The notes below the pieces were generated by a model. It did not search any database. It saw nothing but the letters and a program-made list of their open reading frames with translations, and was not told where the DNA came from. Positions 290 to 28,933 of a DNA stretch of 41,816 nucleotides are shown here, one piece after another. Origin of the DNA: Candidatus Fervidifonticultor quintus (lineage in GTDB: Bacteria > Sysuimicrobiota > Sysuimicrobiia > Sysuimicrobiales > Humicultoraceae); contig JAVKIJ010000019.1 in assembly GCA_031459535.1 (NCBI GenBank), forward strand, positions 1 through 41,816, read 5' to 3'. The translations under genes and the position numbers were made by a program. Position 1 is the stretch's first letter, and each line of letters starts with the position of its first letter.

Positions 290-592
290 ATGCCAAGCCC
301 ACAGCGGCGACGCTGGACGGCGGAGGAGAAGTTGCAAATCCTGGAAGAGGCGCGAGCAGCCGGGGGAAGCGTCAGCGAGGTGTGTCGCCGGCATCAGTTG
401 GCCCCCGGGCAGTTCTATCTGTGGGAACGCCAAGGCCGGCAGGGCGCCCTCCAGGCGTTGCGCGATGGCAAGCGGGGCCGCAAGCCCACCGATCCGGTGG
501 CGCGCTTACAGGCCGAGATCGACCGGCTACGGGTGACCGTCGCCGAGTTGAGCACCGAGAACCTGCAGCTGAAAAAGGGGCTTTGGCCGTAA
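290..592 (+). CDS. IS3-family transposase OrfA (HTH plus leucine zipper)
   Basis: RRWTAEEKLQIL...SVSEVCRRHQL...FYLW HTH_Tnp_1 pattern followed by the coiled coil LQAEIDRLRVTVAELSTENLQLKK. Confidence 0.92.
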   Translation: MPSPQRRRWTAEEKLQILEEARAAGGSVSEVCRRHQLAPGQFYLWERQGRQGALQALRDGKRGRKPTDPVARLQAEIDRLRVTVAELSTENLQLKKGLWP

Positions 593-597
593 GGCCG
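574..597 (+). promoter_or_regulatory. Candidate -1 programmed ribosomal frameshift signal
   Basis: A_AAG_GGG (X_XXY_YYZ) at 574-580 at the end of orfA, followed by the GGCC-GTAA-GGCC hairpin at 585-596; orfB is in the -1 frame. Confidence 0.65.
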
Positions 598-1617
598 CAG
601 CGTCGCTACCTGCCGGAGGAGAAAGCGATGGCGCTCTAGACGGTCGAGGAGGCGCACCGACTCACGGGGCGCCCCATCCGGCAGATTCTCGAAGACCTGG
701 GGGTGGCGGCCGCCACCTACTACCGGTGGGAAGCCCGCGCGCAGACCGATGCGCTGGCGGATCGCTCAGTGCCGCCTCGTCGCCAGGCGCTCCCGCCGAC
801 GCCGGTGGAGGTGGACGCCGTCTGTGCGTTCGCGCTCCGCCATCCCACCATGGGGTATAAGCGGCTGGCGTGGCTGATGATCGACGAGGATGTGGCCTGT
901 CTACGGCCTTACCAGGTCTATCGGGTCCTTCTGGACGCGGACCTGCTGGCCCGGCGCCCGGTGGTGACGGAAGAGCTCAGGCAACCGGAAGTGCCCACCC
1001 AGCCGGATCAGGTCTGGCATATCGACCTCATGTACCTGTACGTCCGGCCCCGCTGGTACTACCTGGTGGACATCCTGGATGGGTACAGCCGCTTTCTGGT
1101 GCACTGGAGTCTGAACCGGACCCTGGGGGCGGAGGCGGTCACGCTGACGATCCAGCAGGCGCTGGATGGGTTGGAGGGACGCCGGCCTGGGTGCCCGCTC
1201 TTGATCCACGACCACGGCGCGCAGTTCCTAAGCGCGGAGTGGCGGCGTTTCGTGATCGGTGCCGGGCTGGTGGACGTCAAGACCCGGGTCGCTCACCCCG
1301 AGTCCAACGGGCGGCTGGAACGACTGCACCGCACGCATCGGGAAGAAGGGGTCGGCGGGTACGACCTGAGCGAGTACTACCAGGCTGTGGACGCCTTAAC
1401 CCGCTGGAGCCACTACTACAACTATCGGCGGCCTCACTCGGCTTTAGGCTACATGCCGCCCATTGAGTACTACCGCGGCGATCCCCAGGCTCGTTGGGGA
1501 GAGCGCCGGCGTAAGCTGGCGCAGGCCACCGAAGCACGCAGAGTGTACTGGAGGCAATCCGGCCATGGGAGACAGGACCCTCACATAATTGAGAGGGCGT
1601 TTTGTCTCACTTCGTGA
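577..1617 (+). pseudogene. IS3-family transposase OrfB with in-frame TAG at 637-639
   Basis: DDE motifs WHID, HDHGAQF, NGRLER. The frame reads RRYLPEEKAMAL*TVEEAHRLTGRPIRQILEDLGVAAATYYRW; the ORF track shows only 703-1617. Confidence 0.8.
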
Positions 1618-2045: not shown

Positions 2046-2983
2046 TCACTCCAGCCGCAGCCGTTCAATTGCCCCTGTCTTCCTGTGCGCCCGCTGGAGG
2101 TCTGCGCCGACCAGGGACGAGTACCGCAACGTGGTATTCAGGCTCTCGTGGCCGAGCAGCCGGCGCACCTCGTCCAACCCCGCGCCGTTTCGGAGCCAGG
2201 CCGTCGCCGCGAAGTGCCGGAGGGCGTGCGGGTGCAGGCGGCGGTGATCGGGTAGCCCGGCCTTCTGGCTGAGCCGGTGCATGATCTGCACGAGATGGCG
2301 GTACTTCAGCGGTCGGCCGGCGCGGTCACAGAACAGGAAGGCCTCCGGCGACGGCAGCGGGTGACGCGCGAGCCACGCCTTGAGCGCGCGCGTCGTGGTT
2401 GGACCAATGAACGTAACGCGATCCTTCCGGCCCTTGCCCGCTCGCACGAACAGCCCCGGGTCGGACGCACGCCAGTCTTCGACCAGGAGGCGGAGGACCT
2501 CACCGGCGCGCAAGCCAGCATCAGCGGGCACCAGGACGAGGGCACGAATCCTGATACCTTCGAGGGTTTCGGGACACGCCGCGAGGATGGCACGGAGGTC
2601 TTCTTCAGCCGGCACGTCGGGCAGCGTCTTCGGCGTGCGCATGGTGAAACCCCGCAGCGGGTTCTCGGGGAGAGCCCCGGTCTCGACGCACCAGCGGCAG
2701 AACGTCTTAAAGGTGCGGTACGCCTGGTGCTGGCGCGATGCCGAGAGGCCTTGCTCCTGCAGGCGCGCGAAGAACGCCCGAACGGTGCTGGGATTCGCCT
2801 CGGGGACGGCGGCGAAAAACCGCTCCAGCCACCAGCGGTACGTCTTCACCGTCGCGGACGTACACCCGGCCACCTGCTTTGTCAGCAGGAACGCCTCAAG
2901 GGCCTCGCGTAGGGGGTGAGCAGGGGCTTTTTCGGCGGATTCTGCGAGGGGTCGAACGGCGGAAACCCGCGTCCTGACTGGCT
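2046..2983 (-). CDS. Tyrosine recombinase/integrase; 5' end unresolved, frame open into the tRNA (first GTG at 2873)
   Basis: Catalytic motifs GLR, GKGRKDR, HALRH, LGH, TTLRY; SAM-like N-terminal region LREALEAFLLTKQVAGCTSATVKTYRWWL begins upstream of the GTG. Confidence 0.9.
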
Positions 2984-3059
2984 TGGCGGGCCCGGAGGGA
3001 ATCGAACCCCCGACCAGAGGCTTAGGAGTCCCCTGCTCTATCCACTGAGCTACGGGCCC
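2984..3059 (-). tRNA. tRNA-Arg (anticodon CCT)
   Basis: 76-nt cloverleaf GGGCCCG...CT-CCT-AA...GGTTCGATTCC...CGGGCCCGCCA with encoded CCA; TAGAAT -10 box at 3077-3072. Confidence 0.95.
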
Positions 3060-3263
3060 GGACTCGGCCTCATTCTACCTCAAGAAGGTCACTCGTTTCA
3101 CCCGGAGACCCCTTCACTGATGCGGGCAACGCGGTGACCCCGGCGGCGCGTGGGCGGCACGCACAGGGAGCTGGCGGAAACCCGTGCGCGCCACGCCGCT
3201 GCTGAAGAGCACTTCGTTCTCGGGCGATTCCAGCCGAGCACGGATAGACCGTCAGGCGGCCGG

Positions 3264-28697: not shown

Positions 28698-28857
28698 CCA
28701 ATCACCAGCGGTAGGTAGCCAGGGTCGCCTGGGTGCACCCGGCGACCTGCTTGGTCAGCGGGAACGCTTTCGACCGCCTCGCGCAAAGGGTGAGCGTTGG
28801 CCTTTTCGCCGGATTTTGGAAGGGCCTCAGTGGCTGAAACCCGCGCCCTGACTGAAT
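28698..28857 (-). pseudogene. Remnant of the 5' part of an integrase homologous to 2046-2983
   Basis: Translates as NSVRARVSATEALPKSGEKANAHPLREAVE[+1]AFPLTKQVAGCTQATLATYRW*, colinear with KPVRTRVSAVRPLAESAEKAPAHPLREALEAFLLTKQVAGCTSATVKTYRWW. Confidence 0.88.
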
Positions 28858-28933
28858 TGGCGCGCCCGGCGGGACTTGAACCCACGACCTTTGGCTCCGC
28901 AGGCCAACGCTCTATCCACTGAGCTACGGGCGC
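28858..28933 (-). tRNA. tRNA-Arg (anticodon GCG)
   Basis: 76-nt cloverleaf GCGCCCG...TTGGC-CT-GCG-GA-GCCAA...GGTTCAAGTCC...CGGGCGCGCCA; TGcTACAAT promoter at 28985-28977. Confidence 0.95.

Follow-up and report, generated by a model that had tools for sequence, protein, structure and literature searches.

Close to its left end, the window (the whole 41,816-nucleotide stretch analysed, which is the entire contig C50) carries what is very probably int(C), one half of a tyrosine integrase gene that has the attachment site within its own reading frame. The same architecture is present in related elements, the distal starts of these elements agree in phase with int(C), fused open reading frames exist in the databases, and no local start is conserved. 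The translation start that is actually used, and the role of the repeated motifs as arm sites, we infer.

The preliminary description had reported an integrase frame on the minus strand that is open from 3074, across all of tRNA-Arg(CCT), to the stop at 2046, with a GTG at 2873-2871 as the earliest in-frame ATG, GTG or TTG. Translation from 3110 to 2046 bore out the open frame, with a stop codon just ahead of it at 3077-3075 and the closing stop at 2048-2046, and the GTG was confirmed from the ORF list and the comparison of loci. Ahead of this internal GTG, int(C) itself lacks a start codon. The features concerned are the following.

2046..2984, minus strand: int(C), tyrosine recombinase, 312 codons counted from the A of CCA, plus the stop at 2046-2048
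2871..2873, minus strand: first canonical in-frame start, GTG, within the SAM-like domain, not conserved
2984..3059, minus strand: tRNA-Arg(CCT), complete, CCA encoded (ARAGORN), presumably the integration target as regenerated by the element
2984..3033, minus strand: presumed att core, the tRNA 3' part from the anticodon loop to CCA, its extent taken from relatives

Read in the integrase frame, the presumed att core gives …PKPLVGGSIPSGPA. The same tRNA-Arg(CCT) is also the target in L001, L004, L005, L061, L065, L066, L071 and L095.

Judged by its domains, the window protein is an ordinary XerD-like bacterial tyrosine recombinase and not an SSV homologue. With residues counted from CCA, the N-terminal SAM-like domain PF13495 covers residues 29-101 (E=1.3e-8) and the catalytic domain PF00589 residues 127-289 (E=1.3e-30, exceeding the curated cut-off); no other Pfam family was found in the protein at E<=0.01. 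In an 18-sequence alignment, the invariant columns R237, K262/K265, R334/H335, H357 and Y366 (P0019 numbering), which we take to be the catalytic residues of tyrosine recombinases (R, K, H-x-x-R, H/W, Y), are all present. The protein thus has all three characters used to define the superfamily, namely PF00589, PF13495 and the conserved catalytic columns. Among 8000 scored candidates, 828 homologues were found at E<=1e-3, with called lengths of 243 to 395 aa and the whole tRNA gene translated in many of them. The sources name the homologues as bacterial and the window genome contains two tmRNA genes, which together argue against an archaeal host.

A homologue at E<=1e-60 is present in 28 of the 94 genomes of the phylum. 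We tabulated 69 loci at an identity of at least 55%, 11 of them without the N-terminus and 9 without a full upstream tRNA (3 of these 9 at contig edges), and based the counts on the remaining 49, each with a complete tRNA upstream on the same strand. There are duplicate rows among the loci (L001 and L013, L007 and L068, and, judged from identical rows only, L076 and L078). The frame is open into the tRNA in 45 of the 49 loci, across the whole tRNA in 31 and partway in 14, and closed in 4. An in-frame ATG, GTG or TTG between CCA and the domain is missing in 31 of the 49. Query codon 46 lies 135 nt past CCA in 27 of these loci and 134 nt past it in 8. Because the same arrangement recurs across loci, the pattern seen in the window exceeds chance. 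In four more distant loci (L014, L015, L026 and L030, with about 46-61% identity), an ordinary ATG precedes the domain by 10-13 codons; L014, L026 and L030 are 100-200 nt away from a tRNA, and the L015 locus is without one. The preliminary description had allowed that homologues might share a conserved start codon and ribosome-binding site downstream of CCA, and in the window clade they do not.

These data also bear on one alternative, an ordinary integrase that starts locally, at GTG 2873 or at another internal codon, with the open frame through the tRNA as a by-product of high G+C content, which makes stop codons infrequent. The window has 68% G+C and numerous long spurious ORFs, and NCBI-named homologues are annotated with 275-286 aa, starting at internal codons. 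However, GTG 2873 lies inside PF13495, the match of which begins at profile position 2 (residue 29), 9 residues before the GTG. It is not conserved either, as the second window copy reads GTC at this position (confirmed by alignment, as previously claimed) and L004 and L019 have no equivalent. L004, which is 80% identical, from the same genus and behind the same tRNA, is without any ATG, GTG or TTG across the compared stretch. A local start further has to contend with the many loci that have no start codon ahead of the domain, and chance explains neither the fixed 135-nt spacing nor the distal starts described next. We consider this alternative highly improbable.

If the gene is split, as we favor, its missing 5' part should be sought at the other end of related elements. 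Perfect repeats of the tRNA 3' part, 45-69 nt in length, were found 3.6-8.2 kb downstream in L034, L067, L069, L074, L075, L083, L048 and L041; with L074 set aside, the repeats measure 49-69 nt and lie 5.4-8.2 kb downstream. L042 has a weaker distal repeat (29 nt, 93% identical, ~16 kb downstream). All nine show a full tRNA and a displaced 3' fragment around an integrase segment, as in the Islander definition. In tRNA coordinates, the direct repeats that bound the related elements (45-69 nt) run from positions ~13-32 to 75/76.

Ten elements were scanned uniformly for a GGAGG-like Shine-Dalgarno sequence with ATG, GTG or TTG outside the repeat. Nine were applicable, L087 being left out of the start count as its int does not adjoin that tRNA; the int phase of L034 was set apart from the uniform scan owing to an in-frame stop in its int. 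Of the 9 applicable elements, 7 have a strong Shine-Dalgarno sequence with ATG or GTG in the phase of int(C), 35-58 codons upstream of the distal repeat, in agreement with the earlier prediction of a start and int(N) at the far end.

L034: ATG, 43 codons upstream
L067: GTG, 43 codons upstream
L069: ATG, 58 codons upstream
L075: ATG, 38 codons upstream
L083: GTG, 38 codons upstream
L048: GTG, 38 codons upstream
L041: GTG, 35 codons upstream

The out-of-phase frames had such a start in 1 of 18 cases (L074), and the uniform scan found no in-phase combination in L074 and L042. The int phase varies between elements (0, 1 or 2), and int(N) tracks it. In L067, which has the 134-nt spacing, int(N) is displaced into the matching phase. 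The promoter that had likewise been expected at the far end was not located, as promoter scans found no promoter-like site upstream of the L034 or L069 int(N). Between its repeats, L034 carries a Prim-Pol, a DNA methylase, an IS110-type transposase and a second integrase.

Related genomes also contain 40-55 nt partial copies of tRNA-Arg(CCT), the window's own target. The earlier prediction holds for this target as well: in L153, a 55-nt tRNA-Arg(CCT) fragment is preceded by AGGAGGTG, 6 nt, an ATG and then 43 codons in phase 0, and this int(N) aligns to those of L034 and L069. Among the five tRNA-Arg(CCT) fragments with upstream sequence, L153 is the only one with a strong Shine-Dalgarno sequence and ATG; L149 has an in-phase ATG with an unclear Shine-Dalgarno sequence, and no such combination was found upstream of the fragments in L148, L150 and L152. 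The attP-like contig L053 shows no canonical start in frame ahead of the core, and L073 and L084 have weak start candidates only at this position.

Natural fused forms are found in the databases. P0019 (390 aa) and P0014 (344 aa) consist, in a single ORF, of an ATG with a non-tRNA N-terminus, the 3' half only of a tRNA, and int(C). The P0019 int(N) is similar to those of L153 and L034. Residues 30-100 of P0019, searched against 5.8 billion proteins, matched P0019 alone. An AlphaFold2 model of P0019 from an 18-row alignment had a mean pLDDT of 54.9, was confident for the SAM-like domain only and fell below 50 in residues 27-101, a weak hint that int(N) may be disordered. Together, the Shine-Dalgarno sequences and starts at the distal repeats and the fused database ORFs point to an attP inside the int ORF, as in SSV-type integrases.

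We propose that the free element would be a circle of about 5-8 kb, on which a promoter, a Shine-Dalgarno sequence and an ATG or GTG would be followed by ~15-35 element-encoded codons. The gene of the circular form would continue with the 45-69 nt tRNA 3' copy read as codons, ~28 poorly conserved codons, and the SAM-like and catalytic domains, and the ~28 codons behind the tRNA-derived core would overlap repeated DNA motifs. Recombination with the chromosomal tRNA gene would put int(C) straight behind the regenerated tRNA, and the Shine-Dalgarno sequence, start codon and int(N) would end up at the element's opposite end, beside the displaced tRNA 3' fragment. Since the Shine-Dalgarno sequence and start would be moved to the far end, integration would remove the translation start of int. 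In the integrated state, integrase synthesis would then be off and int(C) silent in situ, and excision would require integrase supplied in trans by another copy. This integrase might come from a relative that is episomal or superinfecting, or possibly be replaced by the second recombinase of some elements. We lean slightly toward the broader reading that a XerD-like bacterial lineage, widespread in a phylum of hot-spring bacteria, independently evolved self-splitting, with a built-in off switch, excision via related copies or a second recombinase, and the core as a tolerant translated linker. If true, the off switch would explain why a single genome contains several int(C) copies as well as 5' relics, located behind different tRNAs, and a change of tRNA target would rewrite part of the integrase protein.

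Alternatively, int(C) could be expressed in place. It would share a transcript with the tRNA, translation would begin at a non-canonical codon or at one within the tRNA, integration would not inactivate the gene, and the distal ORF would be a small gene in its own right. One feature of the window is relevant here.

3072..3101, minus strand: promoter-like site upstream of the tRNA, from a consensus scan alone, function not implied

A scan for a terminator-like site between tRNA-Arg(CCT) and int found none, and co-transcription is therefore possible. In-place expression would also fit with the whole tRNA being open in frame in so many loci, and with the absence of internal stops from most int(C) copies (L034 has one in frame). 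Contigs from an RNA library cover parts of int(C) at a depth of 3-5, like the neighbouring genes, which is not proof of transcription. A start lies close behind CCA in a minority of loci (for example a fifth-codon ATG or GTG in the C47 paralogue, L031, and in L055 and L061), so that local initiation is possible in some copies. However, the start codon position is not conserved inside or after the different tRNAs (Arg, Gly, Ala), and the window reads ACG where the C47 paralogue reads ATG. If the distal ORF were a small gene apart, one would not expect it to follow int(C) through three phases, nor to be fused to it as in P0019 and P0014. Expression in place thus appears unlikely to us.

The stretch behind CCA contains two sequence motifs that recur at the DNA level.

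2958..2981, minus strand: motif B, immediately 3' of CCA, with DNA-level conservation behind five different tRNAs of the window genome
2911..2933, minus strand: motif A, encoding EKAPAHPL in the window (codons 17-24), with third positions nearly invariant among relatives

Motif B is read in a different frame in the relatives L007 and L067, and L067 has an additional copy at attR, upstream of the core. In 4 of 6 elements, 15-19 nt of motif A, with a centre particular to each element, are repeated ~50 nt ahead of the core at attR, a repeat that 0 of 300 shuffles reached; the motif is probably an attP arm-type binding site overlapping the coding sequence. The motifs repeated on both sides of the core occur in differing reading frames. 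Among 24 distinct relatives, variability at the three codon positions is flat over codons 0-27 after CCA (0.86/0.82/0.95 bits) and 0.77/0.64/1.23 bits in the SAM domain. Flat variability and repeated motifs indicate that conservation after CCA is partly at the DNA level and not a classic coding signature.

The same data could mean that the stretch after CCA is untranslated attP arm DNA only and that the integrase begins close to the SAM domain, at a rare codon. Flat variability, motif B in another frame, and motifs that repeat as DNA on both core sides in different frames would all be explained. On the other hand, the stretch contains no stops, its length is constant modulo the phase set by the distal start, int(N) is displaced accordingly in the 134-nt variant L067, and no rare-start candidate is conserved. 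We therefore regard an untranslated stretch as highly implausible and favor translated codons that overlap DNA motifs.

The preliminary description had also drawn on a second copy of the int 5' end in the window.

28698..28933, minus strand: tRNA-Arg(GCG) with a frameshifted int(C) 5' relic (tRNA 28858-28933, relic ~160 nt)

This copy is genuine: the ~160 nt behind tRNA-Arg(GCG) are homologous to the 5' end of int. It has a 1-nt insertion ~30 codons past CCA (alignment column 179), and two of the eight synonymous pairs listed earlier as coding-like (GAG/GAA and ACA/ACC) lie past this frameshift. Before the frameshift we counted, by eye, ~6 synonymous versus ~11 non-synonymous differences between the window copies. 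The claim of a coding-like substitution pattern after CCA is thus unsupported as stated, and the conservation is mostly that of DNA motifs. It is true that both copies have the same phase relative to the tRNA, but this is automatic with ungapped homology and provides no independent evidence. Similar int(C) 5' relics are found behind tRNA-Gly(CCC) on C128 and tRNA-Arg(CCG) on C64. Between G000 and G004, the host flank is 95.8% identical and the int and tRNA stretch at the same tRNA 78.5%, which we count as evidence of mobility. The two int copies were rejected as orthologues for dN/dS analysis, as int diverges far more than the flank.

The closest known parallel is archaeal. The parts of PMC8371274 and PMC7253208 that deal with the SSV1, pTN3 and pT26-2 integrases (type I, 'suicidal') describe attP within the int ORF and its splitting by integration into a tRNA gene. 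They also describe int(N) and int(C) at opposite ends of the element with the catalytic domain in int(C), and related copies and relics that pile up within a single genome (PMC8371274, PMC7253208). As far as these descriptions go, all four features (attP in the int ORF, split at a tRNA gene, catalytic int(C), multiple copies and relics) have a counterpart in the family described here, the first two in relatives that retain both ends. In the same parts, SSV-type integrases are called exclusive to archaea or so far restricted to them (PMC8371274, PMC7253208), whereas the present host is bacterial (tmRNA genes), the starts are led by Shine-Dalgarno sequences, and int(N) is short, with ~15-35 element-encoded plus tRNA-derived codons. 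The archaeal families carry Phage_integr_3 (PF16795) according to the portion of PMC8371274 concerned, whereas the present protein has PF00589 and PF13495 (XerC/D-like) and no Phage_integr_3. Given the unrelated domain content, an independent origin of the split architecture in the present integrase family appears likely.

Bacterial precedents differ in the part of the gene that is affected. Myxococcus phage Mx8 IntP is a bacterial tyrosine integrase with attP in its own coding sequence, and integration alters the gene, as described in part of PMC6070905; Mx8 and SSV integrases both reach across attP (PMC4383910). In Mx8, on that description, crossover is at the 3' end, and the prophage retains the promoter, the start and the greater part of the protein, gains a new C-terminus and stays active. 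In the elements described here, it is the 5' end with Shine-Dalgarno sequence and start that would be removed, the core precedes the domains, and int(C) keeps the stop. Mycobacteriophage BPs and its relatives show integration-dependent immunity, in which attP lies inside a regulatory gene and integration changes the product (PMC4557955, in the part treating this system). To judge from that account, the integration state is likewise written into gene structure, but the split gene of BPs is a repressor and not an integrase. The part removed in BPs is the 3' end of the repressor gene.

In P4/Islander-type islands, a tyrosine integrase lies beside the regenerated tRNA and the displaced 3' fragment at the other end (PMC4383910). 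In ordinary islands of this type, int lies away from the att core and is equipped with a promoter and a start of its own, an arrangement that matches L014, L026 and L030 (and L015 in its ordinary start, at a tRNA-less locus) but not the window clade. No report of a 5'-split bacterial integrase was found in the openly accessible papers that were searched. A bacterial family that has this design in an unrelated, ordinary XerD-like protein would imply two or more origins of it, and the paradox of 'suicidal' integration would become testable in bacteria. Gene callers assign arbitrary N-termini to such integrases, and island finders that bar overlap of tRNA fragment and CDS would miss these elements; an integrase frame that adjoins CCA without a start codon would be a simple marker of the class.

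The far end of the window copy itself was sought in the 138-contig assembly. BLAST found no further tRNA-Arg(CCT) 3' repeat of more than 15 nt, and with five tRNAs as queries it returned other tRNAs and 13-18 nt chance-level matches and nothing else. Matches on C30 (15 nt) and C67 (13 nt) were rejected as distal att sites, as they lie in apparent coding sequence without int(N). The int(N) DNA of L034, L067 and L069 matched only tRNAs and motif A in the assembly, tblastn with the short int(N) peptides gave noise alone, and tblastx of four elements against the window genome, done for cargo homologues, gave integrase-integrase matches only. Fragmentary Logan contigs of four public runs contained none that joins int(C) to a distal end; loose ends at 2983/2984 in public runs were rejected as tRNA flanks of other organisms. 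IMG/VR held no close relative (top match 47% identity across 75 residues).

From its surroundings, the window copy is an orphan int(C). Its frame is intact and its catalytic-domain columns are conserved, and beyond it come an IS3-like element and then the end of the contig.

290..1617, plus strand: IS3-like insertion sequence, orfA 290-592 and orfB 703-1617, with Pfam HTH_Tnp_1 and rve/rve_3

The contig begins ~2 kb beyond the int stop, within IS copies: the IS3-like element lies ~430 nt past the stop, and the edge of the contig is occupied by a partial copy in inverted orientation (2-172). The IS3-like element truncates the element's cargo, whatever that was. The public runs that contain this DNA are labelled hot springs metagenome, which echoes the thermophilic habitat of the archaeal cases as a parallel only.

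The integrase frame of the window lies in a bacterial assembly of 138 contigs (3.1 Mb, 68% G+C) with tmRNA genes, of which the window is one contig in full. The preliminary description of this frame, including its coordinates, is confirmed: translation shows it open from 3074, thus across the entire tRNA-Arg(CCT) gene, and the earliest ATG, GTG or TTG in frame, a GTG, lies at 2873-2871. If the codon opening with the last A of CCA is taken as the first, the frame comprises 312 codons and this GTG is residue 38, within the SAM-like domain.

2984-3059, minus strand: tRNA-Arg(CCT) (ARAGORN)
Stop codon 2048-2046, minus strand: tyrosine recombinase frame, directly behind tRNA-Arg(CCT) (translation)
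Residues 29-101 from CCA, minus strand: SAM-like N-terminal domain, PF13495 (Pfam)
Residues 127-289 from CCA, minus strand: catalytic domain, PF00589 (Pfam)

The public gene call for this integrase is 323 aa long and begins at a CTG inside the T-arm. The genome carries two tmRNA genes with slightly unlike tags (ANTQYALAA, ANTNYALAA), consistent with the stated 5% contamination or with a bin of two strains.

In a search of 5.8 billion proteins, 828 of the 8000 scored candidates matched the integrase at E≤1e-3. The best 120 of these 828 are 65-100% identical, yet are called at 243-395 aa, and many fetched proteins have a whole tRNA gene translated as their N-terminus. Public calls of this kind include P0001, P0004, P0021 and P0023, among others; NCBI-named relatives are cut to 275-286 aa. 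Within the phylum, 28 of 94 genomes contain a match at E≤1e-60 (the tally takes in two genomes flagged as unpublished, both without a match). No close relative was found in IMG/VR.

From the phylum genomes and a metagenome scan, 69 loci at ≥55% identity were tabulated, more distant loci being excluded. Eleven lack the N-terminus and nine a full upstream tRNA (three at contig edges); the other 49, of which a few rows duplicate one record, have a full same-strand tRNA upstream. In 31 of the 49 the integrase frame crosses the entire tRNA without a stop; in another 14 it extends into the tRNA, and in the other 4 it is closed. Query codon 46 lies 135 nt from CCA at 27/49 loci and 134 nt from it at 8/49. 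A canonical in-frame start between CCA and the domain is absent from 31/49. At three loci, including the paralogue on contig C47 of the same genome, the fifth codon is ATG or GTG; in the window it is ACG. Four relatives at 46-61% identity (L014, L015, L026, L030) start with an ordinary ATG placed 10-13 codons ahead of the domain; L014, L026 and L030 lie, in the textbook manner, 100-200 nt from a tRNA, and the L015 locus has no tRNA.

Direct repeats of the tRNA were then sought downstream of the integrase in related loci. The 3' part of the tRNA recurs as a perfect copy of 45-69 nt at a distance of 3.6-8.2 kb in L034, L067, L069, L074, L075, L083, L048 and L041, and L042 has a weaker 29-nt copy. 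L087 does not count as applicable, as its integrase is not adjacent to that tRNA. A scan with uniform criteria sought a GGAGG-type Shine-Dalgarno sequence 5-16 nt ahead of an ATG, GTG or TTG outside the repeat, with the ORF entering the repeat. Such a start was found in the phase of int(C), the integrase part behind the regenerated tRNA, in 7 of 9 applicable elements, 35-58 codons upstream of CCA, and in only 1 of 18 out-of-phase frames; it was absent from L074 (a 3.6-kb element with truncated integrase) and L042. The spacing from GGAGG to start, read by eye, is 8 nt in five elements and 6 nt in one. Relative to CCA, the int(C) phase varies among elements, and in each shifted variant (134 nt and 127 nt) the distal start shifts along with it. 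A single ORF across attP predicts such agreement, and an unrelated neighbour gene would not be expected to show it.

Five further tRNA-Arg(CCT) fragments, the window's own target, have upstream sequence, and L153, from a related genome, alone is convincing: its 55-nt fragment is preceded by AGGAGGTG, 6 nt and an ATG, from which 43 codons run in phase 0, and this int(N), the start-bearing part, can be aligned to its counterparts in L034 and L069. Upstream of the L149 fragment lies an in-phase ATG with no clear Shine-Dalgarno sequence, and L148, L150 and L152 have neither; older int(C) relics lie behind some of the five. Two database proteins on short contigs, P0019 and P0014, join an ATG and non-tRNA N-terminus, only the 3' half of a tRNA and int(C) in a single ORF, and look like the un-integrated form. 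The proposal of an int(N) with a start at the far end is supported at family level by 7/9 elements, L153 and the fused P0019 and P0014. Comparison of these relatives places the att core within the integrase ORF and the predicted start codon beyond it, on the far side, the local start being missing from most copies.

Further results run counter to this scheme. L073 and L084 offer weak start candidates only, on the attP-like contig L053 the stretch from the upstream second-integrase stop to the core contains no canonical start in frame, and int(C) of L034 contains an in-frame stop. Scans upstream of int(N) in L034 and L069 gave no sigma-70-like promoter. L070 (9867-10052) is the L067 element with the same end and a rearranged attL: the 60 nt past CCA are host flank seen behind attR, and the integrase starts at residue 22. 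It is a rearranged or imprecisely recombined copy.

The 5' region of the frame was compared with the second copy in the window and with relatives.

2958-2981, minus strand: motif B, just past CCA; third positions conserved too
2911-2933, minus strand: motif A; third positions conserved too
28858-28933, minus strand: tRNA-Arg(GCG), then ~160 nt homologous to the integrase 5' end (relic 28698-28933)

As described earlier, the GTG 'start' reads GTC in this relic. The relic carries a 1-nt insertion ~30 codons past CCA, and of the eight synonymous pairs listed as a coding signal, two sit beyond this frameshift. Over 24 distinct relatives with equal spacing, variability in codons 0-27 is flat (0.86/0.82/0.95 bits at the three codon positions), and the SAM domain has the usual third-position excess (0.77/0.64/1.23 bits). 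In 5 of 6 two-ended elements the att core is flanked on both sides by a 15-19 nt direct repeat, which 0-1 of 300 shuffles matched; in four of these elements it corresponds to motif A, the centre of which is element-specific, and in L067 to motif B, and its far copy is read in a different frame. Given this and the third-position conservation, we read both motifs as DNA sites overlapping a weakly constrained protein leader, probably arm-type integrase-binding sites of attP. The leader takes up codons of Arg, Gly, Ala and Pro tRNAs. AlphaFold2, run on P0019 with a shallow alignment, gives a pLDDT of <50 at residues 27-101 and of 77-91 in the SAM-like domain, which hints that the leader is probably unstructured.

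For the window copy itself, no matching distal tRNA fragment, int(N) or L034-like cargo is present in the 138-contig assembly (88.85% complete). An IS3-like element (HTH_Tnp_1 and rve) lies ~430 nt past the integrase stop.

290-592: orfA of the IS3-like element
703-1617: orfB of the IS3-like element
2-172: inverted partial second copy, at the contig edge

Public-contig depth is very high at 1351-1650, and the repeat is therefore common to other community members.

The second full copy, on C47, is 78% identical and directly behind tRNA-Ala(TGC). Its surroundings (C47:14000-22734, locus L135) encode a type I R-M methylase (HsdM), a Schlafen/AlbA_2-HATPase_c_4 gene and a Mutator-family transposase fragment behind int(C); this is a small defence-like islet, in which no distal att site was found. 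Both copies are thus int(C) halves, partnerless in the data. They are not old vertical relics: the same-tRNA copy in the sister species (G004) has 78.5% DNA identity and the adjoining host gene 95.8%, so that acquisition or replacement at tRNA-Arg(CCT) postdates the species split.

Further relics lie behind tRNA-Gly(CCC) (C128:3102-3390) and tRNA-Arg(CCG) (C64:9960-10064), and homology starts at CCA in all copies and relics of this genome. Three of its tRNAs have no more of int(C) right past CCA than a 5' relic, 26 to ~210 nt long; in L048, L148 and L149 such a relic adjoins the distal repeat of a fresh element. Together these suggest that one tRNA is used serially, relics being left behind. 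Weak resemblance to motif B after tRNA-Asp(GTC) and, less clearly, tRNA-Val(CAC) (C106:34269-34347, C51:19330-19404) may mark older relics.

An integrase ORF split by its own integration is supported at family level by good comparative evidence. The long ORF across the core would be the translated form, integration would silence the gene, excision would require integrase in trans or a second recombinase, and motifs A and B would be bound. The layout corresponds to that of the SSV-type 'suicidal' integrases, described as found in archaea alone, or in archaea alone so far (PMC8371274, PMC7253208), but the window protein matches PF00589 and PF13495 and not Phage_integr_3, named for archaeal SSV-type families, and by sequence is not SSV-type. 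This would be the archaeal split-integrase design in a bacterial, unrelated lineage of recombinases. Among bacteria the closest precedent is Mx8 IntP, where attP lies within the 3' end of int and integration yields a new, still active C-terminus (PMC6070905, PMC4383910). No report of a 5'-split bacterial integrase was found in full-text searches, which covered few subscription journals.

The elements are small. Genes between the repeats of L034 include Prim-Pol, a DNA methylase, an IS110-type transposase and another integrase, which has its own ATG; a second integrase also lies behind the first in L035 and L046 and ahead of int(N) in L053. Such an additional tyrosine recombinase is present in many elements; it shares 42-47% identity with the first and varies in orientation.

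L034, 5814-6845, minus strand: second recombinase
L035, 3929-4744, minus strand: second recombinase
L046, 293-1177, plus strand: second recombinase
L053, 1-921, plus strand: second recombinase
L057 and L071: second recombinase

In L053 it ends one stop codon before the core-entering ORF, in the same frame. In L039 (G005:C48, 13647-13724 and 19701-19765), an integrase 44% identical lies at the element's far end, in antiparallel orientation to tRNA-Glu. The 5' end of this integrase and the displaced tRNA fragment (65 nt) overlap, and the gene may therefore be split with the opposite polarity.
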